From Candidatus Bathyarchaeota archaeon (lineage in GTDB: Archaea > Thermoproteota > Bathyarchaeia > Bathyarchaeales > Bathyarchaeaceae), in NCBI GenBank assembly GCA_963697165.1, contig CAVOMX010000006.1:1-64000 (forward strand): a DNA stretch of 64,000 bases, read 5' to 3'. Made by a program: the position numbers and the translations under genes. Of the stretch, positions 20,825-63,170 are shown piece by piece. Under the pieces are notes generated by a model. The model saw only the letters and a list, made by a program, of their open reading frames with translations, did no database searches and was not told where the DNA came from. The number at the start of each line of letters is the position of its first letter. Within the stretch, counting starts at the first letter, position 1.

Positions 20825-20856
20825 GGTAAAATTTTAATCCCAATCCCAAACCCAAA
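20825..20856. repeat. Palindrome family 1, degenerate copy with CCCAAA tail
   Basis: GGTAAAATTTTAATCCCAATCCCAAACCCAAA. Confidence 0.55.
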
Positions 20857-21084
20857 CTCGAGGGTCCCAAAGTATCTGATGAGCTCGTGTTTCCCATGAA
20901 TTTGTTACTTTTGGTCATCTGTTATGTGAAATAGGTTACATTTTTAGTCACTAGTTATTATTTTGCAAAGATTATGGTTTTTTCATAATGAATAGTATCA
21001 TTTTGTGTAACCAAATACGCGTAATTAGGCGAGATTAGAAAAATTTATTTAAAGCGATCAAAATATATATTATATCTGAATTTA

Positions 21085-21918
21085 TTGGAGGTTTTGAAAA
21101 TAAATAAAATCAAAGCAACAACTTTCTGTATGATGATGGTGTGTAGTCTATTTTTGGCATCAATAACTGGAATAGTATTGGCTCAGAAAGCAGGATACAC
21201 ATTAGAACATTATAGGATGGAAACCATACCAACTATCGATGGAACCTGGACTACCTCTTTTGAATGGGCAGATGCAAATGAAAAACAGCTAGACGGCGAG
21301 ATTGAAGCTATTTTCAGATCTAAATATGATTTTGAACTTATTACCAGTGCCATAATAAATCATTATTTCCTTATCGAGGTTTTCGGTGATACAACCGACG
21401 ATTCAGGCGATTATTTACAAATATGTATTGCTGCAGCGAATCAGGTTGGTGGCGTTCCAACTGGAGGCACTACTCCTCAGTCAGATTGTACAAGATTTGA
21501 TTATGTAGGACACAGTAATAGTGGTTTTGCGTTTTACAGAGGTGATGGCTCAGCATGGGTCGAAAGTTCAGCTTACAGTTGGGGACCTGACGTGCAAATA
21601 GTTGATTCCTTTGGCACGTCTCCTCTATCTAATACTCCTCACTTGATTATCGAGGTTAAGATAGCACGGGAGGCCTTTAGTATAAATCCTGAATTTTGGA
21701 TTAGAGTAGCAACATACGATCAAAGCAATTCTGCTGAGGGAGTCCAAGCCTGGCCAGAAGGTTCTAGAGATAATCCGAACGATTGGGGATTAGTAGATAC
21801 GGTCAATGAGACTATTCCAGAATTTCCAGCATGGATTATATTACCAATGTTCGTAATGGCAACTTTAGTAATCATAATCGGTAGAAAAAGACTGACAAAA
21901 AGTGGAACACTGACTTAG
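21085..21918 (+). CDS. Secreted protein with PEF-CTERM-like sorting signal
   Basis: Signal peptide; PTIDG..W N-terminal motif; IPEFP-TM-RKR C-terminus. Confidence 0.8.
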   Translation: MEVLKINKIKATTFCMMMVCSLFLASITGIVLAQKAGYTLEHYRMETIPTIDGTWTTSFEWADANEKQLDGEIEAIFRSKYDFELITSAIINHYFLIEVFGDTTDDSGDYLQICIAAANQVGGVPTGGTTPQSDCTRFDYVGHSNSGFAFYRGDGSAWVESSAYSWGPDVQIVDSFGTSPLSNTPHLIIEVKIAREAFSINPEFWIRVATYDQSNSAEGVQAWPEGSRDNPNDWGLVDTVNETIPEFPAWIILPMFVMATLVIIIGRKRLTKSGTLT

Positions 21919-21948
21919 ATTTATGGCAACGGCTATTCATTCCCTGAT

Positions 21949-22026
21949 TGTGATATCACCCGCGGTTCTTCCGCAAAACTTCCCCTTTTTTTAAGGGCTA
22001 AAATTGAACCCCAAACCCAAACCCAA
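21949..22026 (+). repeat. Composite repeat: family 2 motif + family 1 palindrome + CCCAAA tail
   Basis: TGTGATATCACC..CCGCAAAACTTCCCCTTTTTTT-AA-GGGCTAAAATTGAACCC-CAAACCCAAACCCAA. Confidence 0.75.
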
Positions 22027-22128
22027 TTACGGTTCCATACATTAACTTAGGGTCGTTAACAGAAATAAGTTTTAGTTATCCTTGAAATAGAAACTCATAA
22101 GATTCAGTGACTGGAAGTTTAGGTAGTG

Positions 22129-23017
22129 TTGAATGTAAGAAGGCTCTACTTAGTCGTCATCATGTTGCTGATTATATTTCCATCTTGTGTGGTTCTTGCT
22201 TCTTTCAAGACAGGAGCACAGAACAGAATACTCCATAGATTTTAGAGGATACACGTGGAACCATTCAACAATAAGCGTCAGCATACTTCCACAAGAGAAT
22301 GAGACATGGTGGGAACCGTCCTATCTCAATGCTACGCTTCACGCAATAGCCCAGTGGAACGATGCAATCCAAGAATTCACATCTAATCACGCCAACTTTT
22401 CGTACCTTTCAAATCTCCATCTTGTTCCAACAATATCTTCTGAAGAAGTTTCTGACTTCGACATTTACGTCCAGTGGAACTGCGAGTGCGAAAGCGACGC
22501 ATTGATAGGACAATCTCACGCGACAGTTCAATCGTCATGTATCATCACCAATAGCAGGGTTAGCCTAACGGCAAAAGCCCCAAGCGGTCACGTTATGACA
22601 GAAGTCGATATGCAAAACATTGTTGTCCACGAAATAGGGCACACACTTGGGTTATCTCACTCCAACCATTTTAACGATGTCATGTACGCCTCTGTTGACT
22701 ATCGAGAAACTGTTAAACCGGTTTCCTCGCTTGATATCTATGCTCTCTCCCAAATTTTCGAGTGGATGACCAATTCTACACAGTTCAGTTCTACAATTAA
22801 GTGCCCTCAAGAATCGGTATTAACTTTGCCGCCAAGCATCAGTTACGTTCACTTCAAGATAAATGCTGAAAATCTTCCAGTCTCTTCTCCTCAGAACCTA
22901 ATTGAAGATGTCCTCGGATTATTTTCACGTCCAGAAAGCTTTGCATTTATCATATTTATAGTGACCCTGATTGCCGCTACGGCGATAATCCTAAAGAAAC
23001 GAAAGAAGCCAGAATAA
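22129..23017 (+). CDS. Matrixin-family (M10) zinc metalloprotease, membrane anchored (frameshift near 22220)
   Basis: HEIGHTLGLSH + Met-turn DVMY; signal peptide in the upstream frame; C-terminal TM and KKRKK. Confidence 0.85.
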
Positions 23018-23047
23018 TTTTCGGGATCACTTAACACGCGGTTTTTG

Positions 23048-23064
23048 GGGTTAAATTTTAACCC
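23048..23064. repeat. Palindrome family 1
   Basis: GGGTTAAATTTTAACCC, flanked by TTTTTG and CCCCAAACCCAA. Confidence 0.85.
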
Positions 23065-23304
23065 CCCCAAACCCAAGGCTAACGCTTGATAATGAAAAAT
23101 GAAATAGCGTCAGCATATGATAGAAAGCAGTGATCTGTTCAGGAATATTACACTAACCTGATTTAATGCAGATTCCCACTAACGAATTGTTGCGCGCGCC
23201 GCGCGTGTACAGCAACAGAAATGTTTATTATGTATTACGACGTAATATTTAGATTGGGGAAGTTTAAGTTAAGGTGTTACTTAAAGCCCTGATCTGATGT
23301 ATAA

Positions 23305-23724
23305 ATGAACTGGTTAATAATTACGTTGGACATCATGTTTGCTTTGGTTGCCGCGGTTTTAGGCATTCTAGGTCATGGAACTTTCAAATCTATTAAACAT
23401 CTTGACGTAGGAAAGTCTTTTTGGATCCCCATTTTTGTATCAGGTATTCTTTTCGTATTTGGGTCAGTTGTAAGAATTTTTCACGAATTTGCAGTTGAGT
23501 ACAGTTGGGTAGCAATGACTTATACCGACGAGTTAATCAGAATAAGTTGGCTTCTTGCGATCACAATTCTCTTCGGTTCCATCTATAACTACTCCAAAAA
23601 GGTAAAAATAATTATTAAAGCAACAACACCACAGGCACAAAACGAGGCGGAATTGACAGGATTAAAAAAGCAGACACACGATCTCCTAAAACAAATCGAA
23701 AAACTAAAAGCCGAACAAAAATAG
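23305..23724 (+). CDS. Hypothetical three-TM membrane protein with coiled-coil tail
   Basis: Three hydrophobic helices; charged C-terminal helix. Confidence 0.7.
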   Translation: MNWLIITLDIMFALVAAVLGILGHGTFKSIKHLDVGKSFWIPIFVSGILFVFGSVVRIFHEFAVEYSWVAMTYTDELIRISWLLAITILFGSIYNYSKKVKIIIKATTPQAQNEAELTGLKKQTHDLLKQIEKLKAEQK

Positions 23725-24039
23725 ACATTTTGACTGGATATTTTTTTCTGTCTTTTTCCGAATAGGGTTACAACCGAAGCACTTAGAAGAATAATGCCTA
23801 TTGTATTCTAAAATGCTCGTTCACAGGCAGAAAATATACTGCTTATTTCAGTCAAAGACACATCCCAAAAAGAATGCGTAGCTAATGTATTCACGTACAT
23901 TCCCCACCCGAGGTAGGTAAAAGATCAGGAAAAAAATGTGAGAAAGATGCGAACATAACATTACATCTAGTTTGTTAGAAGTCTATGTGTTTTCTTATTG
24001 TTTTTCGTTTACACTTTTCTTGAGATCTGGCTTATTGAT

Positions 24040-25458
24040 TTACCAATATTCGGTTTTCCATTTTTCGAGGCTCTCATCTAAAGTGGATGACCATCTTTTT
24101 GTCGTTTTAATGCTGGATGGAGGATTTTGCTTAAGCCATTCCCAAAAAACATTCCATTCTTGAGTAGTCATATCTATTGTTCCAGTCTGAGTTTTCCACA
24201 GCTGCAATTGACCTTCTAAAGGTTCATTCCAATCTTCCTTTTGCCATCCTGGAGGATTTTGCTTTAGCCACATCCAGAACACGATCCAATCTTCGGCAGT
24301 CATTTCATTAGATGGAGGAGGTGGAGGTGGCAAGGATTCTAAGTTTAACTCAAAGAATGCTGGTTTAGGAATTCCACGTCTTTTACATATGTTATATTTT
24401 TCATCTTGACTATTATGAACCCACACCCAACTAAAGCACCTGTTCACTCCCAGATTTTGAAATATGTGAATAGTTGACTCGTAATAAATCCTTTGCACTT
24501 CAGTCTTCCTGTTGTTGTTCCCAAATTCACTCACCCAAAATGGGTACCCAGCATTTTTTGTATCTTCTACTGCCTGAACAAAATCATCCCAAGTTGTACC
24601 TTGCCAAGTTACACTAGATCCAAAATCTTGTGGATCCGCAAATGTGTTTATGCTCATAAAATCCAGCGATTGCATGACACGATCAAAATCAACAAAGGTG
24701 CTATAGTCACTACCAGTACGAGTGTGCCATGGACTATAGGGCAATGTAAATTTGATGGTGATAGGTCGATTATCACGGAGGCGAATAACATCACTTCCTT
24801 GCTCTATGAGAACATGAAACTCTTCTCTTTCGATCGCGAGCTGACTAGAACTATAGCTCCCAGAATGCATCGGTTCATTAAGCAAGGACCAACTATTAAT
24901 GGCTGAACTGTACCTGAATTCATCAACCAAATATCCAATCATCTCCAAAAAGTATCCTTTAGTCGTTTCATCGCGCACAATAGCTATGTAACGTTGATTA
25001 CCCGTCTGAGGATCTATACTCCAACTGGGAACTCCCGTAATGGTGTCCATCCAATATTGAAAGAAGCTCATACAGACACCAATCTCATATTGTTCTGCCT
25101 TTGCAAGTACACGTTTAACATTGTTTATGTTTAACTCGTTGTATATAGGCGGATTAACACCAGTCTGAAATGCTGACCAAATAAGATTTATAATAATAGA
25201 ATCCACATTGTTTTCTTTGAACAATTGAAAATCTTGCTCTATTTCACCATCTGAAATTGAATAAGACCAATCATATGGCCCCTCATAGTTTACACCAGTT
25301 GACATATCAGGCGTTTCTTGAGAGTACACAGAAGGAAAAGAAAACATTCCAATCATCAGTGCAAACAGAATCAAGGTTTTAATCCAGTTATGCACATCAA
25401 TACGCTTTACTGATCTTACTTTTTCAAGGAAATAAATATTGGAAGATACATTCTTCAA
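24040..25458 (-). CDS. Secreted clan GH-A glycoside hydrolase (GH5-like) with Pro linker and duplicated Trp-rich tail
   Basis: WSLLNEP acid/base and WVSEFG nucleophile motifs; signal peptide; true start probably downstream of 25458. Confidence 0.78.
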   Translation of the reverse strand: MKNVSSNIYFLEKVRSVKRIDVHNWIKTLILFALMIGMFSFPSVYSQETPDMSTGVNYEGPYDWSYSISDGEIEQDFQLFKENNVDSIIINLIWSAFQTGVNPPIYNELNINNVKRVLAKAEQYEIGVCMSFFQYWMDTITGVPSWSIDPQTGNQRYIAIVRDETTKGYFLEMIGYLVDEFRYSSAINSWSLLNEPMHSGSYSSSQLAIEREEFHVLIEQGSDVIRLRDNRPITIKFTLPYSPWHTRTGSDYSTFVDFDRVMQSLDFMSINTFADPQDFGSSVTWQGTTWDDFVQAVEDTKNAGYPFWVSEFGNNNRKTEVQRIYYESTIHIFQNLGVNRCFSWVWVHNSQDEKYNICKRRGIPKPAFFELNLESLPPPPPPSNEMTAEDWIVFWMWLKQNPPGWQKEDWNEPLEGQLQLWKTQTGTIDMTTQEWNVFWEWLKQNPPSSIKTTKRWSSTLDESLEKWKTEYW

Positions 25459-25570
25459 ATGACCATTTCCTTTTCATTTTATTCTAGTTAGTGTACATAT
25501 TCGGTTTTGCATATTAGAGTTACTCAGTTCCAATGTTTGGGATAAGGTTTGGGAGTGTTTGGGGTTTGGG

Positions 25571-25587
25571 GTGTTAAAATTTAACCC
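25571..25587. repeat. Palindrome family 1
   Basis: GTGTTAAAATTTAACCC preceded by GTTTGGG repeats. Confidence 0.8.
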
Positions 25588-25674
25588 TCAAAATCAAACG
25601 TATTGATGTGTACGTCTACAAATTTTCTCAAGTTCTTGCATCTGTTTCGTGTTTGTATAACTTCTTTTTTAAGG

Positions 25675-26506
25675 TCACTGTTTTAGTTTCTTTCTGTAGG
25701 TAATAACTCCCAAAGTTGCTGTCACAAATAATGGAAGAATTATCCATGAGGGAAACTCTGGAATAATTGGTGCTTCTGTTTGAATCAGCAATGCATAGTC
25801 TGTAATTTCATATGCGAGGGAGCGCATTTCATTTTCTAATTCGGGTATGGCATCAACTGTGTTTAATGTGAATGAAGTGGTCTGACCAGCCTGTAAAGAA
25901 TCTGGAGTCAAATAATCAGAGAAGCCTGTTGCGATTACTGATCCTGTAGAATTGTAGAACGTGCCTACAACCCAGAGTTTGCCTGCGGCTTGATTTCCTG
26001 TGTTCTGTACGCGTCCCGTGATTGTATATATTCCATTTGAATCGATGTGTGGAGAATCGTTTATGATTTCTAAGTCGGGATACTGATAATTATCAGTCTC
26101 ATTACTGATGATAACTTCGAACTCAACATTGTTCAGGTTACCTGAAATCCAATTGAAATCTTCTGAAATGCTAGTGTCAGTGAAAAAATACATGACAAAA
26201 GGCACTTTCTGTTGTGGAAGAATTTCACTAGAATATGGTACCGAGGTGCTCCATGCCTGATCTTCACCATCAGTTGAATTCAAAAATCCACGCAGAGCTA
26301 TATATTCAATATTATTGGGACCTACGTTTTTGTACTTCACCGACAACAATAAAACTGTTGATTGAGGAAATGTACCAACTATAGTCTAGAACTTCAACGT
26401 TTTCTGATTGACTGATTACACTTGGAACTAAATTTACAAACAAAGAAATCATAACAACAAACATAAGAGAAATAACTACAGTTCTTTTCAACAGTTTTAA
26501 CTCCAT
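25675..26506 (-). CDS. Secreted FxLYD-like two-domain protein with PEF-CTERM (frameshift near 26330)
   Basis: Signal peptide; VVGEVQ(N)VG and ITGRVQNTG..TFYN repeats; IPEFP-TM-RKK. Confidence 0.78.
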
Positions 26507-27278
26507 TCTTTAAACTCTCCAACATTTTGTGACTTAAAAATTTTGTTCAGAATTTTGTTAAAATATTAATTTGTTAAAAAAACTAATTTTATCCCCCAAA
26601 TATCGTGGCTACTTATGCAACGATTCGCTACTTACCATATTCGACTATGAACATATGGGAGATATGTTATTCTATACGAGATGTTTTATGAGCGGAATTA
26701 ATTTGTATCCCATTTTTATAGAAACAAGTTACATTTCAGGTGACTAATTATTATAATAAACTAAACATGTTGCTAAAGCATGTTGAAGGTAACATATAAA
26801 GTGACTAACGTCCCAAAACATCCTAATATCTAACCCATATTTTTTACCTAACAATGTGCTACTGTTATCTATAGAGCAAATGAACTGATCCTGTAGATGT
26901 TATGACCGCATGGAAAAGCAGTCTTTGTTATATATGTAACAAAAAAATTGAAATTATCAAAAATAGGTGATGTGTAGATTTGATGGAGTGCCCCATTAGG
27001 TGCAGTCACCATATGTTCCCTAATCACTTCAACTTTTGTCCATATTGTGGATCTAAATTGGATAATGTTTACGACAAGAAAGAGTATAAAAGTCAATAAT
27101 AATGAAAACTAACGAATAACTGAATGAATATACGGGTCCACAAAAGACTAAATGTATTATTCCCTGATTTTTAGGGACCCTTTAGGTCAGTTATCGCGAA
27201 AATGGTTGTTGCTAGGTTTTTGTTTCCCTAACTACTAGGGACAACACCTAAAAGCAAGAGATAACCGACTTAGCCTTT

Positions 27279-36072: not shown

Positions 36073-36531
36073 CCTCAGCTAAAAGCGTAATATATTGCAT
36101 ATTGTTTCTCTGCATCTTTTCCCGTTTTTTCGCCCTTAAACATTCCTGAATAAATCTGCTGACATTTAAGAGCAAACAAAGCGAAAAGGAGCGCGAACAT
36201 TACCTCACGTCTGGTCAGGTTTGGTAGGCGGAGTGGTCTCCACCGAAAAACATACTGAAAGAGCTTGAAGACTGTTGTCTACAAAAGTTAACTGATCTAA
36301 TAGAACCGCCCAGAACTGTTGGGTGCGCCTCAAGATCGCACAAAGTACCTCTCTGCCATCTCACCACCGCGTTATGCCCGTGCAGAAACATTGATTTTTT
36401 CTTAAAACTCCTTACTGGATTCTTCCCTGAAACAGTCTCAGAAGTGCATTTCAAAGCATAAGTATTTGAGAAACGATTTGCCTCCTATTTTTCGACTTAC
36501 GATTTTAATAAATTCTGGAAGTAGTTTTGGA

Positions 36532-37389: not shown

Positions 37390-37517
37390 CCACGAAAGCT
37401 CTAAGAACAGCAGCAGCCAGATTCATGACTTAGAAAATTCAAACCACCCATAAAACGGGTGCAAATACAAACAAAATATCAAATACTAATAATACCAAAT
37501 AGAACTGAATCTAGCAG

Positions 37518-45527: not shown

Positions 45528-45640
45528 AAAAAAAATTACGCTGCTTATGTAACTTGAATTTCAACGGATGAAAAGTAGCATTACAACGAAATTAAAGTGG
45601 AATGAAAAAGAAAAAAAGAGTGTTGTTAGTTTTGTTTTTC

Positions 45641-46486: not shown

Positions 46487-46920
46487 CAGTTATTATATCA
46501 AAGGATTTGCTTAAGATACTTGTTATAGCCGACACATGAAATTTAATCCAAATAGCTCGTGCGTTGATTCTCGATGAAAAAGTCAACTCTTTTTTCCATA
46601 AACTGCATCATAAGTTACTTCTGCCCCCAAAGTCACTAGTAACGCAGCAATTACTGTAGCGAGTTCTGGACTAATTATTATCGATATCCCAACCAGTATT
46701 TCCGAGAAAAGAATATTATTCAAATAGTTTTGAATGAAACTCTGGAAAAAAAAGCTATTTTCAATCGATTTTTTTCTACAATGGGTGATGTTGTGATGTT
46801 TTGTGATTTTGTGTTGTGCGTATAAAGAAAGAAAAAAGGATTAGAAAGTAGACAAAAACTAGAGAAAACAGAAAAACGAATGTATACAGACAGGAAACAA
46901 GACAGAAAACAGAGAGATAA

Positions 46921-46937
46921 AGGCTAAAATTTAACCC
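46921..46937. repeat. Palindrome family 1
   Basis: AGGCTAAAATTTAACCC-CAAA. Confidence 0.75.
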
Positions 46938-47094
46938 CAAACATTTTAGAAGCTGCAAACCATTGGTCTTACAATTAACAATCACTCAAGTCTCTAAACA
47001 AAGTGCCTTTGTTATTGTCTTACTACAGCCACATATATTTAAGAGAGCTTGAACCTGTTCAGAGATTGTTTAGGTGTAATATACGAAAGAAAAA

Positions 47095-48171
47095 GTGATC
47101 TTAAGGATGGCGCGGTTTTCAAACTATTTCGTTGAAGAAAAAAAAACTGATTGCTATCAAGAAAAGTTATGGCTGGGGCTGAGGATCTATCGTGGACTAT
47201 TATTAAACTTGTTTGGAAGAAGGATTCCGCTGTTTTGTGGGCACAAATTAACCTATAAATGTAATCTTCAATGCAAGATGTGTCCTTTCTGGCAAAGACC
47301 CAGCGGAGATTCTAGTATAGAGCAGGAAAAAGCGATTCTAAGGCAAATCTATGCTTCAGGTGCTTGTGGGATCGCGTTTGAAGGCGGAGAGCCTCTTCTG
47401 AGAAAGGATTTGGCGGAAATTCTTGCTTTTTCTCGGTCGTTGCCTTTGCACACAAGCCTTGTCACTAATGGAACTCTCCTCGAATCCAGAATAGACGAGA
47501 TAGCCCCATTCATAAACGGCGCTGTCTACGTTTCGTTAGACGGTCTAGAAAAAACGCATGACACGATTAGAGGCGTTAGTGGTTGTTTTAGAAAAGCGGT
47601 AAGAGGCATAATGGCGTCCAGAGAGAAGGTCTCAGTGACAATCAACACGACGATAATGGCTGAGAATATCCACGAGATTGAAGATTTGGTGAAGTTGGCA
47701 AATGAATTGGATACAGTAATATCGGTGGCTGTAGCGCATGAGTACGGTCAAGCCAAGGCTTCCGCAGCTGCCAGTCGCGAAATCAGAGAAATAGCTGGAA
47801 AACTTGCCAAGATGAAAAAGAGTGGGTATCCCATTATTAATTCACCCAGTTATTTTAAAGTCATTGCTAAAGAGAAAAACTGGACCTGTAAACCTTGGGT
47901 ATCAGTTAATGTTAGTCCAGAGGGCAATTTGGTCCTGCCCTGTTATGTTCGGAATGAATACGCGAGTAGCGTTTCGGTTTTTGAAACCGATATCAAAACT
48001 GCAATCTCTGGATTTGACTGGAAGGAAACACAGAACTGCCAAAACTGCAGTCTCCATTGTTATGTAGAGCCTTCTCTGGTACTTTCAGGGGATTTTCGAA
48101 CTTTCCTGAATTGGGTGGCTCAAATTAGCGGGCTCAACTCTAAAAAAGTAAGAGCTAAAAAAGTCGTTTAA
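47095..48171 (+). CDS. Radical SAM protein (PTO1314-like) with SPASM/twitch tail
   Basis: GHKLTYKCNLQCKMCPFW, EGGEP, W.CKP..PCY, CQNCSLHCYVEPS; true start probably near 47151. Confidence 0.88.
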   Translation: MILRMARFSNYFVEEKKTDCYQEKLWLGLRIYRGLLLNLFGRRIPLFCGHKLTYKCNLQCKMCPFWQRPSGDSSIEQEKAILRQIYASGACGIAFEGGEPLLRKDLAEILAFSRSLPLHTSLVTNGTLLESRIDEIAPFINGAVYVSLDGLEKTHDTIRGVSGCFRKAVRGIMASREKVSVTINTTIMAENIHEIEDLVKLANELDTVISVAVAHEYGQAKASAAASREIREIAGKLAKMKKSGYPIINSPSYFKVIAKEKNWTCKPWVSVNVSPEGNLVLPCYVRNEYASSVSVFETDIKTAISGFDWKETQNCQNCSLHCYVEPSLVLSGDFRTFLNWVAQISGLNSKKVRAKKVV

Positions 48172-48207
48172 CTTGAATCAAATATATTTTACTGGTAAAT
48201 TAGGCTG

Positions 48208-48228
48208 CGAATCCCACTCCCCACACCA
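48208..48228 (+). other. Possible tRNA 3'-end remnant (att-like)
   Basis: CGAATCCCACTCCCCACACCA resembles a T-arm 3' half + acceptor + CCA; no 5' half upstream. Confidence 0.4.
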
Positions 48229-48327
48229 TTATTTGATGCAGTTTTTAGTAATCTTTAAATCGTGTCGTCTTTTTTTTCGACCTTGATTAGCGATGGATGT
48301 TGTTACGGCTGTTCTTGTTTGGGTTTG

Positions 48328-48344
48328 GGGTTAAAATTTAACCC
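48328..48344. repeat. Palindrome family 1
   Basis: GGGTTAAAATTTAACCC preceded by GTTTGGGTTTG. Confidence 0.85.
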
Positions 48345-48574
48345 CCCCTTGACGGAACGACGGACGATCTGAACGACGGCGTCCAACGTGGGCGACGAAC
48401 GACGGACCAAACGACGACGGACGGGATGTAACTGTATACACGGTTTAGGTACTACCTGTTACCTATTTCCTTTGGACTGGGACTAATTCTGGTTCGCATA
48501 TTATGAAACAAATAATGAAAAAATAACTATACTAAAAAGCTTTAAATCGGCCTATAAAATATTAGAAGTAGAAA

Positions 48575-51539
48575 ATGTGGAGACAAAAATTGTTTAAAAA
48601 AGTTTGTTTTCTAATTTTGCTGATGCTAGTCTTCTCTCTCTTTATTTCTTCTGCTTTTAGCCAAACCGATAATCAGGTTCCTGTTGCTGATGCAGGTGGT
48701 CCATATTCTGAGATCGAAGGAGCGGTTGTTAGTTTTGATGGTACTGGATCTTACGATCCTGACGGAAATGTGACTTCTTATTATTGGATTTTTGGTGATG
48801 GAGAAAACGGTTCAGGAGAAACAGTTGCTCATACATACAGCCAAGAAGGAAATTATAATGTTACTTTGACTGTCTACGATGATAATTTCGATTACAGTAC
48901 AGATACAACATTTAGTAAATATCGAGGACGTCGATCCTATAGCCAATTTTTCTGCTTTTCCCACTTCTGGAAATGCACCATTAAATGTAACATTTTATGA
49001 CCAAAGTAGTTCATATGACGGATTAATTTCTTGGGAATGGAAACTTGATAACGGTCAAATTTCTTACGATCAAAATCCTGTCTTCACTTATGATAGAAAA
49101 GGAAAATATACTATAGAATTAAAAATAACGGAATCTGATGGTGATGAGGACACTTTTAGTATAAATGATTATATTGAAGTTTTTGTTCCAAATCAGGTTC
49201 CTGTTGCTGATGCAGGTGGTCCATATTCTGAGATCGAAGGAGCGGTTGTTAGTTTTGATGGTACTGGATCTTACGATCCTGACGGAAATGTGACTTCTTA
49301 TTATTGGATTTTTGGTGATGGAGAAAACGGTTCAGGAGAAACAGTTGCTCATACATACAGCCAAGAAGGAAATTATAATGTTACTTTGACTGTCTACGAT
49401 GATAATTTCGATTACAGTACAGATACAACATTAGTAAATATCGAGGACGTCGATCCTATAGCCAATTTTTCTGCTTTTCCCACTTCTGGAAATGCACCAT
49501 TAAATGTAACATTTTATGACGAATCTTTATCTTATGATGGCGTGGTCTATTGGTTCTGGGACTTTGGGGATGGGACAACTAGCGAAGAGCCAAACCCTAG
49601 TCATGTTTACACGGAAGGAGTTTACACAGTAAATTTGACTGTAGAAGAAATTGATGGAGATTTCTATAATTATTCAATGCCGGACTTAATTAACGTAGGG
49701 CCTCGTCCTAATGCTTCTCCAGTAGCCAATTTTATTATCGAATCAGTTAATCCAAAAATAAATGAACAAATAGTCTTTACAGACACTTCAACTGACTCAG
49801 ATGGTTCAATCACATTCTGGTATTGGAACTTTGGAGATCAAACAACTTTAACTATAAGAAATCCTATGCACCAATACCAAAACCCCGGTGTTTATAATGT
49901 AACGCTTACAGTAACAGATGATGATGGAGCAAATCAAAACACAACACAGCAAATATCAATATCTGAAAACACTCCACCAATAACTTCTCATGATTATGAT
50001 GGATTGTGGCATAACACTACTTTTACAATAAATTTGAAAGCAACTGACATCCACAACAGTATACTTGAAACATTTTATAGAATAAATGACGGTCAATTGA
50101 AAAAAGTAAGTGTTGATGGTCAACCCCAGATAACCCTAGATGGTTCAAACAATAAACTTGAGTTCTGGAGTGTTGATATCTTGGGAAACGATGAAATACA
50201 TAAAACAATTTCAAACATAAAACTTGATAAAACACCTCCAGTTGCCGATGCAGGGCAAGATGTTTCAGTTAATGAGGATGCTATCATAACCTTAGATGGA
50301 AGTAATTCTCATGACAACTTGGGAATTAACAACTACACTTGGATTCTTAATGATGAAACTCTTCAACAACTAAATTCAGTTACTCCTCAATACATTTTTC
50401 ATACACCAGGAGTTTATATTGTGGAATTAATTATCGCTGATTTTGCTAACAATTTAGCACTTGATGCCATTAAAATAAACGTCATGGATACCACTGACCC
50501 AATCGCTAATGCAGGTAATTATTCAGTAGTCAACCAAGGAGAAACATTGACATTTGATGGATCAAAATCAACAGACAATGTTAAAATAACTAATTTTGTC
50601 TGGAGTATTAATGATGAGACACCCCAAATAGTAGAAGAAGTAAATGCAACACACACATTTAGATTTCCAGGGGTTTATGAAATCAATTTAACAGTTTTTG
50701 ATGAACAAGGCAATTTTGGTACAGACAATATTTTTGTTACAGTAATAGACAATACTTGGCCAGTGGCAAATGCGGGTCTTGACCAAAATGTTGAGGAAGA
50801 TACATTGGTATATTTAGATGGTTCAGCCTCTTTTGATAATGTTGGAGTTGTAAGTTATCTTTGGTCTTTCATCGATGGTGAAGTTCAATCCTTGAATGGA
50901 ATTACTTCCAGTTATTCTTTTGAAACCCCAGGAACATTCGAGATCACTCTAACTGTTTCAGATACAGAAGGTCATTCTGCTAACGATACTGTTATTGTAG
51001 TTGTTAGAGATATTACTGCTCCAAAAATTGAATTTACGGAATTTAATAAAATAATCGAAGGAATTCCCACAACTTTTGATGCTAGCAAATCATATGATAC
51101 ATCTGGCATCGATAGTTTTTATTGGATTTTTGGGGATGGAAATGTAGAAAACGGTTCTGATTCTTCAGTTTCCCATGTTTATAATGAATCTGGCACATAC
51201 AGTTTGAAGTTGTTTGTAACTGATAAAGCTGGAAATGTTAACTCTGGCGCGATTTCCGTTAACGTTTACTCGGATCCTAACAATTATCCTTCATCCGAAA
51301 CAAGACGAAGTAAATCCTGAACCGGAAAATCCAAAACCCTTAGATGCTGACATCAATCCAGATGATGGAGGGCTGAATGAACCAGAAGAATACGAGAATA
51401 AATATAAATTCTGAAGATAATGATTCCTCTAGGTTTTATTTTAGCAGATATTTTGACAATAATAATAATTGTATTACTAGTGGGGTATGTACTGTACACA
51501 AAACGGCAAGTGCTTATTGATAAAATTAATGAGTATTAA
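48575..51539 (+). CDS. Multi-PKD domain cell-surface protein with C-terminal TM anchor (frameshifted)
   Basis: Repeated PVADAG, W.FGDG, Y...G.Y.V.LTV; signal peptide; TM ILTIIIIVLLVGYVLY-TKR before the stop at 51539. Confidence 0.88.
48671..49520 (+). repeat. Near-perfect 330-bp internal duplication in the PKD gene
   Basis: 48671-49001 matches 49191-49520 except for one extra T at about 48912. Confidence 0.9.
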
Positions 51540-51769
51540 GCTACCTTTTTATAAATTTTAAAGATGGAAAAAACATCTATAAGAAAAAAGACCGAAAAAC
51601 ACAGAATTTAACATTAGTTTTCATCGTTTATATAAGAAAATGGACAACCAAAAAAACAAAAAAGAAACGAATGTAGAGAAGTTTTCTAGACTATTCTACT
51701 GTTTTGTTTCTCACGTTATGTTTTCGTTGAAAGAAACTAAATTATTTCACCGCAAGGCATTATTAAAAA

Positions 51770-51810
51770 ATGTTAAAATTTAACCCTTAAAAAAGAAGGA
51801 TGTTGCGGGA
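51770..51810 (-). repeat. Composite repeat: family 1 palindrome + partial family 2
   Basis: ATGTTAAAATTTAACCC-TT-AAAAAAGAAGGATGTTGCGGGA. Confidence 0.7.
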
Positions 51811-51960
51811 ATTTTTTCGGAATCCTTTCTTGACTCAAGTTCAAATGTAAGACATTGTATTCCGCTGCAAACGTCTAACTTATTTACAATAGTGTGTCTT
51901 CAAATCTGGGCGATGCGGGCGCTAATCTATTCTTAAATTTTTGGAGGGGGGAAGTAAAAA

Positions 51961-52164
51961 ATGGGGGGATGTTACGGGACTGAAGTTGTGATGGAATATA
52001 GACTTATTCGAAAATTTGAGAAAGCCGGAGCAACTTCGAAAGAAAGAGCTGTAACCTTTGATGAAGCAAAGTTAGACATTATGGAACAGTATTGGCTAGA
52101 TTATTTTGCAGGAGTTTTTCTTGGCAAAATAAAAAAGACAAAAAATCATCTATACTACATTTAA
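51961..52164 (+). CDS. Small hypothetical protein (possible winged helix)
   Basis: GGAGG RBS; 67-aa ORF. Confidence 0.6.
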   Translation: MGGCYGTEVVMEYRLIRKFEKAGATSKERAVTFDEAKLDIMEQYWLDYFAGVFLGKIKKTKNHLYYI

Positions 52165-52309
52165 TATTGGTTCATCAATTTCTTCATTCAGCGGCTCTGG
52201 GCGTATAATTTCTTTTAGGGGGTGAGAGAGCAGGCGCGCGAGCGGGCGGGCGTAACCACACACGTACACGCGTACACATTCGTAAATACGAACACGAATG
52301 TGTGTGTTG

Positions 52310-52326
52310 GGGCTAAATTTTAACCT
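52310..52326. repeat. Palindrome family 1
   Basis: GGGCTAAATTTTAACCT between convergent genes. Confidence 0.75.
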
Positions 52327-52498
52327 CAAATCAAAGCGCACCCCTGTACACGAATCTACGTATCTTTTTCCCTCTTTCTAACTTTCTAGAAAACATTAAC
52401 ATTGGCTTAATTTTTTTGTTTCTTTACTTCCGATTTCTCTTTGAAGTCTATTTGATAAGAAAAGAGTTGTAAGCGTATGCATGCGGTTTCCAACACGC

Positions 52499-53059
52499 TT
52501 AGTCATATGATATCAATTCTTTTTCCTCAACTTGTTTATGAAGTTTAGCGATAGCTTTGTAAACGTTTTCCTCTTTTGTGGCTCCTGTGCAAACAATTTT
52601 CCCGCTTGCGAAGATAAGAATCACAACTTTTGGTTCATCCATTCTGTAAATGAGACCCGGAAACTGTTCGGGTTCATACATGGTTCTTTCGAGACTATAA
52701 GTAGCTTCTTCAAGCTCTATTCTCCCTAAAAGGTCCGCTGAGGCAACCATGTTCACTATTTTGATTTCGGGTTTTCCAGGTATGATTATTCCGCTTTTTT
52801 TCAGTTCTTTTACAACTTTCAGAACAGCTTTTTTTGATTCATTTTCAGACTTGGCTCCGGTGCAAACCATCTTCCCCGTACTGAAGATTAGGATGGCGGT
52901 CTTAGGCTTTTTTAGTCTGAAAACTAGACCTGGAAACCTTTCTGGACGATACTCAACTCCAGGATTCCCCTTAACAATCGCATTCAAGTCAAACCTTTGA
53001 TTTAACGTTACAGATGCCACAACATTTTCGATCCTGATAGAATCTTCAACAGTAGTCAT
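52499..53059 (-). CDS. tbp: TATA-box-binding protein
   Basis: IENVVAS, YRPERFPGL, LIFSTGKMVCTGAK, repeated as YEPEQFPGL..LIFASGKIVCTGA. Confidence 0.96.
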   Translation of the reverse strand: MTTVEDSIRIENVVASVTLNQRFDLNAIVKGNPGVEYRPERFPGLVFRLKKPKTAILIFSTGKMVCTGAKSENESKKAVLKVVKELKKSGIIIPGKPEIKIVNMVASADLLGRIELEEATYSLERTMYEPEQFPGLIYRMDEPKVVILIFASGKIVCTGATKEENVYKAIAKLHKQVEEKELISYD

Positions 53060-53160
53060 TCATATCCCCATCATAGACATCATATTTTTTGCTTCTGTTA
53101 AGCCTTTTGACCCAAAGTTCTGTCTCATATACTGAGAGAACCGGAAAAAATTCCTATGAG

Positions 53161-53177
53161 ATGTTAAATTTTAACCC
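53161..53177. repeat. Palindrome family 1
   Basis: ATGTTAAATTTTAACCC-CAAATCC. Confidence 0.8.
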
Positions 53178-53243
53178 CAAATCCAGAGTAATTTAACTTT
53201 GTGGCAACAACAGTCCCTTTATGCTAAATTAAATTTTAGTCAG

Positions 53244-54233
53244 TTACACTCGAAGGCGGTTTATATCTTCATCACTAGCGGCAGTAGATCTAATGATTGT
53301 TACATTTCCAGCTAGTACCCGTTGTACATTCACTTCCTCACAATTTTCAACATCCGAATACCTTATTGTTATCTCAGCTGCTTTCTTTGTAACCTTACCA
53401 GAACAATTTTCTTCCAGTAATGTAATTGGACCCATGTAATCAACAACTTCAAGGTGTGGTAGTTGTTTTCGATTGCTAATCATTAAAAGAGACTGGTTTT
53501 CTTTCTCATTTCTCCCTACAATAATTTTTTTTCCATCAAATCGAAAATGTCTCCCTATTTTCAAAAGATTAACATCATCTATTTTTAGGTCTTTTTTGTA
53601 TTTTAATAAATCCTTTAGTCTTTCAGCAAACTTAGGGTCGGTTAGTAAACATCCACCTGATGGACATGGGTAGTCTTTTACGCCCCATTTGTTAGCTAAA
53701 TCCATTTGTGGCAATCGTCTTCGCCCTTGAATTGAATGCAGCTTCTCCCTATTCACTTGCCCGCTTTTTTCTATCTCTGTTTCAGGTAGAAGTTTTGCAG
53801 ATAAAGGTCTCAGAATCATTCCTTCCATTTCGGCCTTCCTTTCAATAAGATCCATTGCCCTTTTGGTTTGAGAGAATGGTCTTTGATCCAAAACCTCCCC
53901 GGTTACAACGCATTTAGCTCCCAGTTTTTGGGCTAATTCTTTAGCTTTTCTCATCATCATAATTCTACAATCTATACACGGATTCATTTGACTGCCATAT
54001 CCACGAGGAGGATTAGCAATTAAATCCAAATATTCTTGACCCAATATGACTGTATGCGCCTTAATTCCAAAAGTCTTGACTACCGATCCTGCAGAACATT
54101 TATCACAAAGACAAAAAGGGGTAGTAAAAATTGCTGCTTCTACATCTAGGTCTTGATCAATCATTGCTTTAACGGCCAATGTACTGTCTAAACCTCCAGA
54201 AAGTAGAACTAACACTTTGGATTTTTCATTCAT
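53244..54233 (-). CDS. PP-loop ThiI/MnmA-like putative tRNA sulfur-modification protein
   Basis: SGGLDS, NPCIDCR, TGEVLDQRPFSQ, LRPLSA, GGCLLTD, GRHFR, GRNEKEN. Confidence 0.8.
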   Translation of the reverse strand: MNEKSKVLVLLSGGLDSTLAVKAMIDQDLDVEAAIFTTPFCLCDKCSAGSVVKTFGIKAHTVILGQEYLDLIANPPRGYGSQMNPCIDCRIMMMRKAKELAQKLGAKCVVTGEVLDQRPFSQTKRAMDLIERKAEMEGMILRPLSAKLLPETEIEKSGQVNREKLHSIQGRRRLPQMDLANKWGVKDYPCPSGGCLLTDPKFAERLKDLLKYKKDLKIDDVNLLKIGRHFRFDGKKIIVGRNEKENQSLLMISNRKQLPHLEVVDYMGPITLLEENCSGKVTKKAAEITIRYSDVENCEEVNVQRVLAGNVTIIRSTAASDEDINRLRV

Positions 54234-54409
54234 TATATTATCACCAATTAAATATTAACTGATAATTTGGTCAGAATTTGTTCAGTAAAATCTTATTTAT
54301 AGAATTCATGAAGACACCAATTCAATATTCGTCAGTTATAACGAAACAGAATGATGATATAACACCGTTATATATTTTTTCTTTTAAAGGCATAGATGTT
54401 TCAACAGAG

Positions 54410-54426
54410 ATGTTAAATTTTAGCCA
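54410..54426. repeat. Palindrome family 1 (degenerate)
   Basis: ATGTTAAATTTTAGCCA-CCAAATTCAAATCCAAAACC. Confidence 0.65.
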
Positions 54427-54623
54427 CCAAATTCAAATCCAAAACCAAACACACACTATAGACAGCTATTACAATTAGCCATTGCTAATTGTGGAAAAAC
54501 AATAATTTAAAATAATAATACTTCATTGCTAAAAACAGTCTTTTTTCCAGAAAAACAGCGAACCTTAAAGGTTAATAGAAAACTTGACCACCTAACTAGT
54601 ATTCACTTTGGGAGCGGACATTA

Positions 54624-56461: not shown

Positions 56462-57361
56462 TTACTCCAGATTCAACACTTCTTTTAGATTTGCTTTAAA
56501 CGGACCAAGCTTGCCTCCGTAGTTACCAGCAGTAATCTTTATGACTCCAGGAACTTTGATTGCAGCCTGTATTCCTTCACCCATAGCAGCTTTCACAACT
56601 TTCTGGTTCAAACCATTTATTACAATCTCGTAGACGCTATTAACACCGTCTGGAACCATAGAGTCAGACACCAATTTCTTGATGGTTGGACAATATTGAT
56701 GGCTTGTAGATGCAGGAAGCTTATAGTTAAGAGATCCAATTTTCGATCCTGCCCTGCATAGACCGCCGGGGAAGGGCATAATTACTCCCCGAACATTCTT
56801 ACTGATGGCTTCTTTAGCGTCTTCCGATGCCTTTAGAGCAACCTCCCAGTCTTTTGCTAATATAAGCATGTTTCCACTGGCAACTGCTTTCATGATTCCG
56901 AAGGTATCTTCAACTATGAATTCGCCTTCCATAACTGGTATTCGCCAAACTTTCCTTCCAGCAACCTCGTCACTTTTCTGGAAGCCGTCTCCGAATAGGC
57001 GTAGGCTTCTGCCAATTTTGACTCTTCTTTTTGCTTTGGGTAACGCGTCGAAGGCTGCTGTTGTTGGGCAGGTCATGATGCATTGTCCGATTCTTAAACT
57101 CATTTGGTGCTTGAGATCGCCTCTTGAGCTGTGGTAGATTTGAATGATGGCTCCTGGACGTCCGTCTGGAGTTTCTTTTGGAGATACAAGTCCTTCTACT
57201 GATGCCTCTGCTGGTGACATGATGATGGATGAAGCGAAGCCTGATGCGGTTCTTGCTGCGATTAATGCCCATTTTTCATTGGCAGCAGTTATCAGTATTC
57301 GACCTGCCCACATTGGAAACATTTCGGCGAATGTATCCTCTATGGTGCAGAATGTTTCCAT
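56462..57361 (-). CDS. ftr: Formylmethanofuran--tetrahydromethanopterin N-formyltransferase
   Basis: IEDTFAEMF, ETPDGRPG, RIGQCIMTCPTT, FGDG, PVMEGEF, PFPGG, GSKIGS, AGNYGGKLG. Confidence 0.95.
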   Translation of the reverse strand: METFCTIEDTFAEMFPMWAGRILITAANEKWALIAARTASGFASSIIMSPAEASVEGLVSPKETPDGRPGAIIQIYHSSRGDLKHQMSLRIGQCIMTCPTTAAFDALPKAKRRVKIGRSLRLFGDGFQKSDEVAGRKVWRIPVMEGEFIVEDTFGIMKAVASGNMLILAKDWEVALKASEDAKEAISKNVRGVIMPFPGGLCRAGSKIGSLNYKLPASTSHQYCPTIKKLVSDSMVPDGVNSVYEIVINGLNQKVVKAAMGEGIQAAIKVPGVIKITAGNYGGKLGPFKANLKEVLNLE

Positions 57362-57414: not shown

Positions 57415-58578
57415 TTACTTTCTTTTTCTGAAGATTTTGATTCCGTCTCTTTCTGTGACATACTCGAAACCTGCCATTAACAACTCTTCGTCTTGTTTTA
57501 AACTTTTAGATGTTGCGGTGTGATACTCGTCACTCTCAAAGTTCACAAAATGGGTGTAAATAAGTGTAGATGTTATGTTCCTGTGTCCAAGTCTCTCTTT
57601 AACATGAAGAATGTTTTTTGTTTTGAAGTATTCCAATGAACCATAGAGATGTCGAAGAGTGTGAAAGGTGATTTTGTCTATTCGGGGATTCTGTAGTTTA
57701 TTGGCTACATGTTTTCGTTGTTGCCTGAAGTTTTTTCTGAAATGTTTTAGTTGAGTATTTCCGAATATTTTCTCTCCTGTTTTCGGTAGCATATTAAGCA
57801 TTGAAATTAGTTTGCCTGATATCTTGAATTGACGTGGTAAACCATTTTTTTCAGGTTTGTTGATTGTTAGGATTCCTTTCTCCTGGTCAAAATCTATCCA
57901 TGTTAATTGCCATGCTTCTCCATACCTGCAACCTGTCTCGTTCAATAATTGAATGAATGTCGCAACTTTCCGACTACAACCGCCAATTAATGCCTCGATT
58001 TCTTTTGTTTGTGGTAGCCACGGTAATTTTTCTTGTTTTTTCCCCATGTTTCAAAGTTGATTTGTTCAGAAATCTGTATGTTACATATTTGGCAAAATGA
58101 TTTGTAAGCAATTGCAGAGTTTTTTTTAGCTCCATCAGTCCAGTTCTTTTCTGTTACTGTTCTGGTTTTATGGCTGAATTTTTTGGCCTTGTTAATAATG
58201 TGAAAGACACTTTCAGGGTTTGTTAAGGTTGCTCCACGTTTTTGCAGTAACTTCAACACGTTTACTCGGTTTATGATTGTTTTAGGTTTCAGTCCTTTAA
58301 GAATCAGTTTTGCTTCATAGTTTACTAAATGTCCTTTTGTGGTCGATTCTCCCGCAGTCTGTTTTTCGTTTTGTTTTGACTGCGTCCAAGTTTTTCACTC
58401 TCTCTGTTTCGAGAGCGCATATTTGGCGACCACGTGTTATCTGGTAGTCTTTATAATATTTTTCATTGAAACGATAACCACAGCTTCGACAAAGATATCT
58501 TTGAAACACCTTGCCCTGAACGTAACGTAGACCATCTTTCCAAATCATAGAGTTGGTACATTCAGGACAAACCAGCAT
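57415..58578 (-). CDS. Tyrosine recombinase/integrase with N-terminal Zn ribbon (two frameshifts)
   Basis: CPEC..KDG.R..QRYLCRSCGYRF; catalytic GCRYGE, K, HTLRH, LGH, TLIY; frame breaks near 58330 and 58045. Confidence 0.88.
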
Positions 58579-60596: not shown

Positions 60597-60613
60597 AAGT
60601 TAAAATTTAACCC
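60597..60613. repeat. Palindrome family 1
   Basis: AAGTTAAAATTTAACCC. Confidence 0.75.
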
Positions 60614-61016: not shown

Positions 61017-61068
61017 GGGTTAAAATTTTAACCTTTAGAAAAAAAGTGGACTTGTGGGAGATATCACC
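61017..61068 (-). repeat. Composite repeat: family 1 palindrome + family 2
   Basis: GGGTTAAAATTTTAACC-TTTAG-AAAAAAAGTGGACTTGTG-GGAGATATCACC. Confidence 0.75.
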
Positions 61069-61696: not shown

Positions 61697-61756
61697 GGGT
61701 GATATCACCCCGTCCATTTCGCAAAACTCCCCTTTTTTCAAGGGTTAATATTTATC
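61697..61756 (+). repeat. Composite repeat: family 2 + degenerate family 1
   Basis: GGGTGATATCACCC..CGCAAAACTCCCCTTTTTT-CAA-GGGTTAATATTTATC. Confidence 0.75.
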
Positions 61757-61798
61757 TTTCTAGATATACATTCCATAATTGCCAAGGATTGAAGATCT

Positions 61799-62284
61799 AT
61801 GTTTAATAAGATACTTGTTCCTTTAGATTGTTCCAAATATGCAGAAACTTCTTTGAAAGTAGCGATTGAGATAGCTAAGAAATTTAAGAAAGTAGCGATT
61901 GAGATAGCTAAGAAATTTAATAGTAGTCTTTCTTTAGTGCATGTTGTTTCATCTCGTAAAGAGTATTGTAGATCTGGGATTACTGGAAAACTTAGAGTCA
62001 AATGTAACTTAGACGAAGTTACTGACAAAGACATCCCAAAGATTTGTAATGCACTTTTAGATACAAGTAAAAATACAGTTATTGCTGAAGGAGTTTCAGT
62101 AAATACAATACTGAAAGAAGGTAAAGTTGTAGAAGAGATACTGAATACGATTAAGGAAGGAAAATTCGATTTAGTTGTAATGGGTTCTAGAGGTCAGGGT
62201 TTGATAAAAAAAATATTCTTAGGGAGTGTTAGTGAAGGAGTTAGTAAAGAAGCTATATGTCCGGTTTTATTGACAAGAAATTAA
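61799..62284 (+). CDS. Universal stress protein (UspA family)
   Basis: MFNKILVPLD.S, LVHV, DLVVMGSRG..LGSVS..CPVL; 33-bp tandem duplication. Confidence 0.9.
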   Translation: MFNKILVPLDCSKYAETSLKVAIEIAKKFKKVAIEIAKKFNSSLSLVHVVSSRKEYCRSGITGKLRVKCNLDEVTDKDIPKICNALLDTSKNTVIAEGVSVNTILKEGKVVEEILNTIKEGKFDLVVMGSRGQGLIKKIFLGSVSEGVSKEAICPVLLTRN

Positions 62285-62312
62285 GGTTTACAAGAATATT
62301 CACAGCAAAGAT

Positions 62313-62373
62313 TGTGACGTCGCCCCGGGCTTTCCTGCAAAACTTCTTTTTTCAAAGATTAAAATGTAATCCC
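62313..62373 (+). repeat. Composite repeat: family 2 + degenerate family 1
   Basis: TGTGACGTCGCC..TGCAAAACTTCTTTTTT-CAA-AGATTAAAATGTAATCCC. Confidence 0.65.
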
Positions 62374-62410
62374 AAAAATATTTAAGAATTTAAAATTAAA
62401 GATAGCAAAT

Positions 62411-62635
62411 ATGAAAACAGTATATTTGAAGGTCTTAGGTTATGTTGGCGAAATTCTGGGTAATTTTATAATAATAGCAGGATTTTTTCTAATGTTCAAT
62501 GATCCAAGCCAAGAATATAGATCGCTTGAAATTGTTTTGTTTTCGGTTGGTGCAATTCTATTGGGAATAGGACTAATTAGTTATATATTATTCCGCAACA
62601 AAACTACGGGAATTATGTTCCAGAAGGCATGTTGA
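62411..62635 (+). CDS. Small two-TM membrane protein
   Basis: Two hydrophobic helices. Confidence 0.55.
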   Translation: MKTVYLKVLGYVGEILGNFIIIAGFFLMFNDPSQEYRSLEIVLFSVGAILLGIGLISYILFRNKTTGIMFQKAC

Positions 62636-62759
62636 AACCTACATATTTTATGCTAGTATGCCCTACCTAAACCGATTAAAATTCAAATACGAAAATTAGG
62701 TGAAAAGCAAGACTTCTCTTTTTTAAACCATTTGCCTAAAATTATCTCATTTCAAGCAA

Positions 62760-62993
62760 GGAAAAATTATTGCTGGATTTGAAGGAATGTTTGGCGGAGA
62801 AGTTACTGCCTATAGTTCTGAGGTAGAAAAAGCTAGAAACGAGTCAATGGAAAGATTGATCGAGAACGCCAAAAGTGTAGGTGCAAATGCAGTTGTTCGC
62901 ACAGATTTTGAAACAAGCGATATACTAAACGGAACAGTCACAATATTTTCTGCCTACGGGACAGCGGTGATTATTAATCCTCTTAAAAAGTAG
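62760..62993 (+). pseudogene. 5'-truncated YbjQ/UPF0145 family gene
   Basis: GKIIAGFEGMFGGEVTAY..AR..GANAVV..SAYGTAV; the N-terminal strands of YbjQ are missing. Confidence 0.7.
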
Positions 62994-63023
62994 GCTTAAT
63001 CAGAGATAATAAAATTCAGCAAA

Positions 63024-63170
63024 TTAAAAAAAGGGAATTTTTGCGGGAGATGTCTCCACTATGGGGAACATTTCAGCGAATGTATCCTCTATTCTTACTG
63101 GGTCTTGTTTTCCGGGTACTTTTACAATGAAATCGTTATCTTCTTTTTTAATAACTTCAAGAGATGCCAT
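63024..63170 (-). pseudogene. Displaced 5' fragment of ftr
   Basis: MASLEVIKKEDNDFIVKVPGKQDPVRIEDTFAEMFP, then runs into the element end; RBS-like and TATA-like elements upstream. Confidence 0.8.

Follow-up and report, generated by a model that had tools for sequence, protein, structure and literature searches.

A dispersed palindrome at the joints of exchanged gene modules points to a previously undescribed gene-shuffling system in one genus of Bathyarchaeia

Palindromic sites and islands of the window

The DNA analysed here (the window) comprises positions 1 to 64,000 of contig CAVOMX010000006.1 from a Candidatus Bathyarchaeota archaeon (assembly GCA_963697165.1). It consists of a conserved backbone and of islands at ~20647-27236, 36151-54523 and 57344-63055, each of which is missing from some relatives, and it carries copies of a 17-bp palindrome, GGGTTAAAWTTTAACCC. 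This palindrome is a genuine, genus-restricted family of recombination joints bounding mobile gene modules. Up to ~100 palindromes lie at the joints of swapped gene-sized DNA, which points to a previously undescribed gene-shuffling system in one genus of Bathyarchaeia.

An initial annotation of the window had listed 17 copies, and all of them were verified, one (at 20824, not 20825) with an offset of a single base. Three copies match the motif perfectly, two have one mismatch and eight have two; the weaker copies have three (20824) or four mismatches (54410, 61742 and 62356). The blocks at 1-20 kb and 27-37 kb had been described as core-like and free of copies. This holds for 1-20 kb at up to four mismatches, and 27-37 kb yields a single match with four mismatches at 30744, which is at chance level (position weight matrix score 6.5). 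The second block is not entirely core-like, as it includes a 4.2-kb insert (~29740-33956) that is missing in relatives. A structured RNA or tRNA identity of the sites was ruled out by searches of the window with Rfam and ARAGORN, both of which returned zero hits.

Island 1 (20647..27236) is absent in the related genomes G018 and G003 and replaced by other site-bearing inserts in G001 and G006. Its first site, at 20824..20840 with a CCCAAA tail running rightward, is followed by a site between a PEF-tail gene and a matrixin gene (21995..22011), a perfect site (23048..23064) and a site with its tail leftward (25571..25587). The module 23048-25571 contains two genes. Island 2 (36151..54523) is absent in G019 and has ten sites and a ClpB gene inside. 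A perfect site at 38581..38597, for which G003 retains both flanks, is followed at a distance by sites at 45185..45201, 45511..45527, 46921..46937, 48328..48344 and 51770..51786, by one between the convergent genes for a 67-aa open reading frame (ORF) and a TATA-binding protein (TBP) at 52310..52326, the convergent arrangement being as initially annotated, by one separating TBP from a ThiI-like gene (53161..53177) and by a weaker site at 54410..54426, ~100 bp inward of the right island edge. From 45.2 to 54.4 kb each interval indeed encloses one gene, although that for the PKD protein is spread across two frames. In the third island, sites are located 3' of a TIR/SEFIR gene (60597..60613), at 61017..61033 with one additional T, and at the left (61742..61758) and right (62356..62372) joints of a Usp module.

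Distribution of the sites and exchange of gene modules

A genome-wide motif scan, as proposed with the initial annotation, gave 62 matches at up to two mismatches in the 1.99-Mb genome, whereas three order-5 Markov shuffles yielded 0, 1 and 0. At up to three mismatches, sites were found on 22 of the 25 contigs, and 77 of these 88 sites are intergenic according to a simple ORF caller. The genes around the intergenic sites are arranged in tandem in 41 cases (++ 16, -- 25), convergently in 22 (+-) and divergently in 14 (-+), and convergent intergenes are mildly enriched for sites (22/77 vs. 272/1455, p 0.04). All 24 other genomes of the genus contain the motif, in numbers from 1 to 96, and genomes of other families gave a single match in four of 16 cases. 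When a 13-base core pattern was searched in a class-wide draw of 201 genomes, 3-45 matches were obtained in the genus and 0-2 in four sister-genus genomes. A mild excess of this core over the control was observed in the distant family f17 (G045, G055, G069 and G084; 13 vs. 3 in G045), which may have a related site.

An exact 22-mer of the site was detected at 42 loci in a species-level genome collection, 39 of them titled Bathyarchaeia or other archaea and several Ca. Bathyarchaeum; judging from these titles, the latter is probably the genus of the site. The same 22-mer occurs at no fewer than 130 metagenome loci, and the flanks were completely retrieved for 80 of them. Assembly artefacts were ruled out by the presence of the motif in all 24 relatives, single-contig genomes included, and in independent sequencing runs. 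The single-contig relative G024 has 55 sites, compared with 6 in its reversed sequence, and 28 of the 54 spacings between them are shorter than 3 kb (5.4 expected). A viral origin was likewise ruled out, as the IMG/VR database contains no match to the 22-mer, three isolated matches to a 19-mer on unrelated-looking contigs, and no relative of the site-adjacent integrase of locus L215 that is discussed below.

Modules between sites span ~0.4-2.3 kb (median 1043 bp) and mostly contain one gene (107 of 187), with unrelated neighbours. An example is presented by the radical-SAM module of the PTO1314 family (46925..48346, plus strand), which is 97.8% identical in G019, another species, whereas most other segments shared with that genome reach 78-86%, ClpB at 94-95% being the exception. 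The homology halts within both sites and the neighbours are unrelated. At the left joint (46921..46937), the alignments with G019 and with a contig from the public run X3 both start within the site, and at the right joint (48328..48344) the centre base is A in the window and T in G019; the two sites are unlike each other in both genomes. In a database search with the cargo protein, all named close relatives belonged to Bathyarchaeia or Thermoproteota. Altogether, four modules of 268-1407 bp, this one included, recur at more than one locus, bounded by a site at either end and with different outer flanks. In the case of the Usp module, the G019 copy diverges within the right site and ~21 bp past the left one.

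Further joints were found within the genome and in public runs. On contig C14, a 99% duplicate of the end of the TIR gene terminates at the last base of the site 60597..60613, where 22 run contigs also diverge (16 + 6 contigs with loose ends at 60613). In the four runs examined, from four different studies, which include these loose ends, contigs also align from 46926 and from 51774 and are preceded by unrelated sequence; that of run X8 aligns from within the site 51770..51786 and has 43 unrelated bases in front of the aligned part. The comparison of 410 unique sites, from which the bacterial-labelled loci L059, L080 and L082 had been excluded ahead of the counts of pairs and of module arm types, revealed 29 pairs sharing one flank (>=85%) with the other flank unrelated, and four distinct pairs sharing both. 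In the 29 one-flank pairs the centre base differs eight times and positions -1 and +1 never. Mismatches at -1 to -8 on the shared side amount to 0, 2, 1, 0, 3, 4, 0 and 1, and those on the other side to 0, 1, 3, 2, 3, 6, 5 and 9. This profile places the exchange, and with it the switch of homology, inside the central 11-13 bp.

Intergenic breakpoints in general also coincide with sites more often than expected. Among the intergenic ends of matches with >=90% identity, 21 of 101 lie within 20 bp of a site centre, compared with 4.6 expected from neighbouring intergenic positions (Poisson p 2e-8), an enrichment that the initial annotation had named as a check. Genes next to sites are poor in orthologues, both in this genome (30/121 vs. 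743/1497) and in G024 (30/79 vs. 755/1244), and their products are diverse, with 519 singletons among 653 clusters. In proposing recombination sites that delimit gene modules, the initial annotation is supported by breakpoints within the sites themselves.

Several observations weigh against this interpretation or restrict it. The remaining 80 of the 101 intergenic breakpoints are away from sites. Islands 1 and 2 reach at least 100-180 bp beyond the site nearest to each outer edge, the empty island-1 locus of G018 and G003 is a direct join without a site, and the insert 29740-33956, missing in six relatives, has no strong site either. A ClpB block common to G003 stops 77 bp short of the site 45185, and homologues of the ThiI-like and MscS genes in relatives have displaced sites or none. 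Neither of two further expectations of the initial annotation was borne out: no clean empty site, i.e. an X-site-Y allele matching a filled one, was found among 487 sites, and no exact site-to-site excision joint or excised circle among the run joints listed, where a joint of run X1 (46943-48315) was left uncounted, one side being short and its filling unknown. At positions -5 and -6 on the module side, 3 and 4 of the 29 pairs show a difference, which leaves room for more than one cut position; these pairs are not independent, and many loci had been selected for carrying a site. The both-flank control for the stability of the centre base is only 4/4, and hypermutation of this base is a possible alternative to a tolerated mismatch. 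Finally, profile searches identified no enzyme for the sites. The sites thus explain part of the island dynamics and not the founding of islands, which were probably founded by other routes and remodelled afterwards at sites.

Site anatomy, candidate enzymes and rival explanations

The symmetry axis of the site falls on a single base. Around this free centre base lies a near-invariant core of 7 bp, AAA-W-TTT, followed by arms that decay outward. Counted from the centre, the arm consensus comprises 18 bases, TTTAACCCCAAACCCAAA; as a rule it is complete on one side only. When sites are oriented to have a right-hand tail, 199 of 276 carry T at the centre, as do 54 of 82 (p 0.005) in two genomes sampled without selection; the site is therefore weakly polar. 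In sites selected by one arm (n = 46; reversed control n = 2), the partner bases are AAA in 93-100%, TT in 85% and GGG in 52-74%. A partner arm accompanies 51 of 61 arm matches, compared with 8 in the reversed control, and orphan half-sites remain at control level. The internal arm types of the 187 modules are near random (Ax 102, xx 60, AA 25), which indicates that direct and inverted sites are used about equally.

Tyrosine recombinase core sites consist of inverted arms around spacers of 6-8 bp. The initial annotation had described inverted arms around a 7-bp spacer, and the AAA-W-TTT core is compatible with a tyrosine recombinase cleaving at the borders of a 6-8 bp overlap, such cleavage being a prediction from the sequence. 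On balance we favour, with moderate confidence, the reading that the palindrome is the crossover site of conservative site-specific recombination by a trans-acting enzyme, similar to pdif modules in its working and yet not a member of that system. Each site would represent two module ends joined at a common core. A tyrosine-recombinase-type enzyme would bind the arms (full arm ~AACCCCAAACCC) and exchange strands across the 7-bp core. Since a single base interrupts the self-complementarity of this core, any two module ends could be joined in either orientation, so that arrays could grow, flip and swap chromosome-wide. The enzyme would act in trans, which is suggested because no conserved recombinase was found, and may reside on a passing mobile element. 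Binding of the site, its cleavage and circular intermediates are steps that we infer. The eight centre flips among 29 pairs suggest that a central mismatch is tolerated. In the accessible text of PMC2817482, tyrosine recombinases are said to require identity in the overlap as a rule; pdif sites tolerate one spacer mismatch according to that of PMC13141974.

The searches for such an enzyme covered several families. XerA (NF040815, E<=1e-40) was not found in any of the 25 genomes of the genus, while the control was positive in 11 of 14, and 11 integrases scored no higher than 128 against this profile (cut-off 220). Against the IntI profile TIGR02249, 11 proteins scored at most 79 (cut-off 265); this profile matched none of the 25 genomes, but its control was likewise blank everywhere. 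Resolvase, IS110, Y1, DDE_1 and telomere resolvase were not detected in the four to five genus genomes tested for each, and rve appeared only below threshold, in G006. TopoIB is present in the four genus genomes tested and was rejected as the enzyme, as it also occurs in an outgroup without the motif. A Pfam scan of 283 of the 293 basic soluble proteins of G024 revealed no further recombinase, and ~30 of them matched no family. Four of the ten proteins left out are already known integrases, and the filter dropped proteins with a pI below 8.3, a length below 170 aa or above 750 aa, a predicted membrane helix or a match to 400 kb of outgroup G212.

The lack of a recombinase in these searches is what a different reading would lead one to expect, in which a genus-specific regulator, chromatin protein or terminator factor binds the palindrome and modules swap by general homologous or microhomology recombination, the site being only their shared sequence. 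It would also agree with the intergenic position of the sites, often 3' of a T tract, with their mild enrichment between convergent genes, and with the majority of breakpoints being away from sites. We nevertheless regard it as rather unlikely. The initial annotation had named a fixed distance to gene starts as the mark of a transcriptional site; sites lie at varying distances from start codons (23-590 bp) and from stop codons, and all gene orientations occur at them, which rules out a promoter operator. A site is kept nearby in only 5 of 30 orthologues in G024, copy numbers in the genus span 1 to 96, the best-conserved bases are those of the A/T centre and not of the G/C arms, and flanks seldom retain their partner (29 vs. 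4 pairs). The sites could also be head-to-head transposon ends with a one-base spacer, produced when a transposase of the DDE, IS110 or HUH type inserts next to ends already present. Insertion sequence families with abutted-end intermediates exist, and every site can be read as two inverted ends and one free base. However, orphan half-sites do not exceed the control, IS110, Y1, DDE_1 and resolvase were missing in the four to five genus genomes tested for each, and the largest clusters of site-adjacent proteins contained no recognisable transposase, as judged by N-terminal sequence rather than by a profile scan; we consider this explanation very unlikely.

A solo Cas1 is a new lead. In this scheme a casposase-like Cas1 would insert DNA of gene size into the 13-bp core, which would be duplicated in the process, resulting in arrays that resemble CRISPR (clustered regularly interspaced short palindromic repeats) with genes as spacers. 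Cas1 matches were obtained in 9 of the 25 genus genomes, and no CRISPR-like array was seen in 17 Cas1 loci of ~3-4 kb. In 8 of these 17 loci a site lies within ~1.5 kb; the corresponding figures are 2 of 20 for integrase loci of the genus (p 0.02) and 14-17% for non-orthologous genes. The centre base is the same in 124 of 213 pairs of adjacent sites, compared with 106 after permutation (p 0.016), identical 13-mers are found 45 times in direct and 20 times in inverted orientation, and a cut at +-6/7 is permitted by the one-flank pairs. However, variant bases at +-4 to 6 are shared 15 times directly and 14 times inverted, which leaves no duplication-specific signal, and Cas1 was found neither in this genome nor in G024 with its 55 sites on a single contig; for these two reasons it is a lead only. 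Moreover, tails move together with module ends, the radical-SAM module is flanked by two unlike sites in either genome, and the Cas1 loci are related to each other and may be mere cargo. This mechanism is accordingly quite improbable in our estimation. At loci L368-L384, stand-alone cas1 genes and fragments are embedded in small variable gene clusters, and at L372 a cas1 fragment starts right at a site.

The initial annotation had assigned the sites to the Zn-ribbon tyrosine integrase encoded in the window (57415..58578, minus strand). We consider it highly improbable that this integrase family acts on the palindrome, and the window copy itself was rejected, because it has its own att repeat in ftr. 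Its gene is broken into three frames and belongs to an integrative element (57312-63272) which targets the 5' end of ftr and provides a replacement start. The 32-bp att core is duplicated as a direct repeat, with copy 1 within the ftr 5' end (57312..57343) and copy 2 within the displaced original 5' end at the far side (63061..63092), which closes island 3, and relatives directly join the two points. In a quick tree of 44 family members, three have a palindrome 20-25 bp past the stop codon, two of them being sister sequences (L215 and L147, SH-aLRT 99), and the intact integrase of L215 is located inside a site-bounded module. The integrase of this subclade may be a candidate enzyme; it may instead be cargo. 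The other 41 members lack a site next to them, many bordering on tRNA-like sequence or core genes instead; the family is also present in genomes without the motif, and the PF00589 matches of a relative with 51 sites include no intact copy. Relatives of the window integrase directly precede tRNA-like sequence or genes that we take to be cooC-like, rpoK-like and ribosomal protein genes.

Known systems and neighbouring features

The initial annotation had compared the modules with pdif and integron cassettes. In its working the system resembles pdif modules, but tested features set it apart from Xer/dif, pdif, integrons and shufflons. In the accessible part of PMC13141974, pdif sites of Acinetobacter plasmids, served by XerC/XerD, bound gene-sized accessory modules, have the crossover within the site, are polar with one arm better conserved and tolerate a single spacer mismatch. 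Modules between shared sites, a crossover within the site and polarity with one better-kept arm are found here as well, and a single central mismatch is probably tolerated too. The same text describes pdif as an 11-6-11 format (28 bp) with varied asymmetric spacers, strict C/D alternation of inverse sites, a location mostly on plasmids and use of the host Xer. In contrast, the sites reported here have a single-base axis and a uniform, near-palindromic 7-bp core, their internal arm types do not alternate, they occur chromosome-wide and XerA was not found. Archaeal dif, as covered in the accessible portions of PMC2958812 and PMC8371274, is likewise an inverted-repeat site in non-coding DNA, but it is a single-copy 11-6-11 site, compared with up to ~100 copies here and XerA missing in 25/25 genomes.

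Integrons, archaeal ones included, share the tandem arrays of diverse accessory genes between sites, often without an integrase nearby (bioRxiv 10.1101/2022.02.06.479319, as far as its accessible text goes). Here, however, genes occur in both orientations (++16, --25, +-22, -+14) instead of a single cassette orientation, and module ends are long and non-coding. The attC site of integrons has R''/L''/L'/R' boxes and a bottom strand that folds; here no outer R boxes were seen in the arm consensus and no shared long hairpin in five window sites, without an attC covariance model having been run. The sfx sites of the R64 shufflon resemble the palindrome in having a 7-bp core between a conserved arm of 12 bp and a variable one; in the accessible text of PMC11852207 they form one locus beside rci that inverts only parts of genes, whereas the sites reported here are dispersed, bound whole genes that move between genomes and have no adjacent recombinase gene. 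The lone cas1 genes of the genus, with their variable surroundings and frequent proximity to sites, recall casposons and solo Cas1. Casposons combine Cas1 with a family B polymerase between terminal inverted repeats and are flanked by a target-site duplication. Different from casposons, there is no signal specific for target duplication, and Cas1 was not found in two site-rich genomes; the Cas1 neighbourhood was seen for ~1.5 kb per side.

The literature searched, with subscription journals and supplements outside its scope, contained no description of the motif or of such modules in Bathyarchaeia. These archaea are abundant in sediments and have highly variable accessory genomes, for which that literature yielded no dedicated mechanism. 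A short defined joint predicts where genes are gained, flipped or swapped, including paralogues of basal transcription factors. If true, an orientation-free recombinase with a 7-bp core or a gene-capturing Cas1 would be a new enzyme activity and a possible genetic tool for a group with few such tools. A more far-reaching reading, which we hold to be possible at best, is a chromosome-wide gene capture with neither Xer nor IntI through a universal self-complementary joint; in its boldest form, a stand-alone Cas1 would take whole genes as spacers and constitute a living link between casposons and CRISPR adaptation.

Some neighbouring features are of interest in their own right. The ClpB gene of island 2 (42478-45069), which scores above the TIGR03346 cut-off and may be of bacterial origin, is 92-95% identical in G003 and G019, whose backbones reach ~75-82%, and lies in a 7.3-kb block common to G003. 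The PKD-repeat surface protein (48575-51320) is encoded in two frames and contains a 334-bp internal duplication of 99% identity; the split is due to a frameshift or an assembly error. Multi-kb duplicates at 93-98% identity (contigs C12/C14, C2/C21, C8/C21 and others) suggest a strain mixture in the assembly. The TIR/SEFIR protein (59482-60477), likely the product of a defence gene, has three C-terminal repeats of 39 residues, and the 3' part of its gene is duplicated on contig C14. Low-complexity tracts rich in GACG, CT, CA or CCAA often come after sites, as at 48345-48440 in the window and at many other loci. The genome encodes five TBP and four TFB paralogues (window 52499-53059; contigs C23, C11, C3 and C18), and three of the TBP genes and one TFB gene lie within ~0.5 kb of a site.

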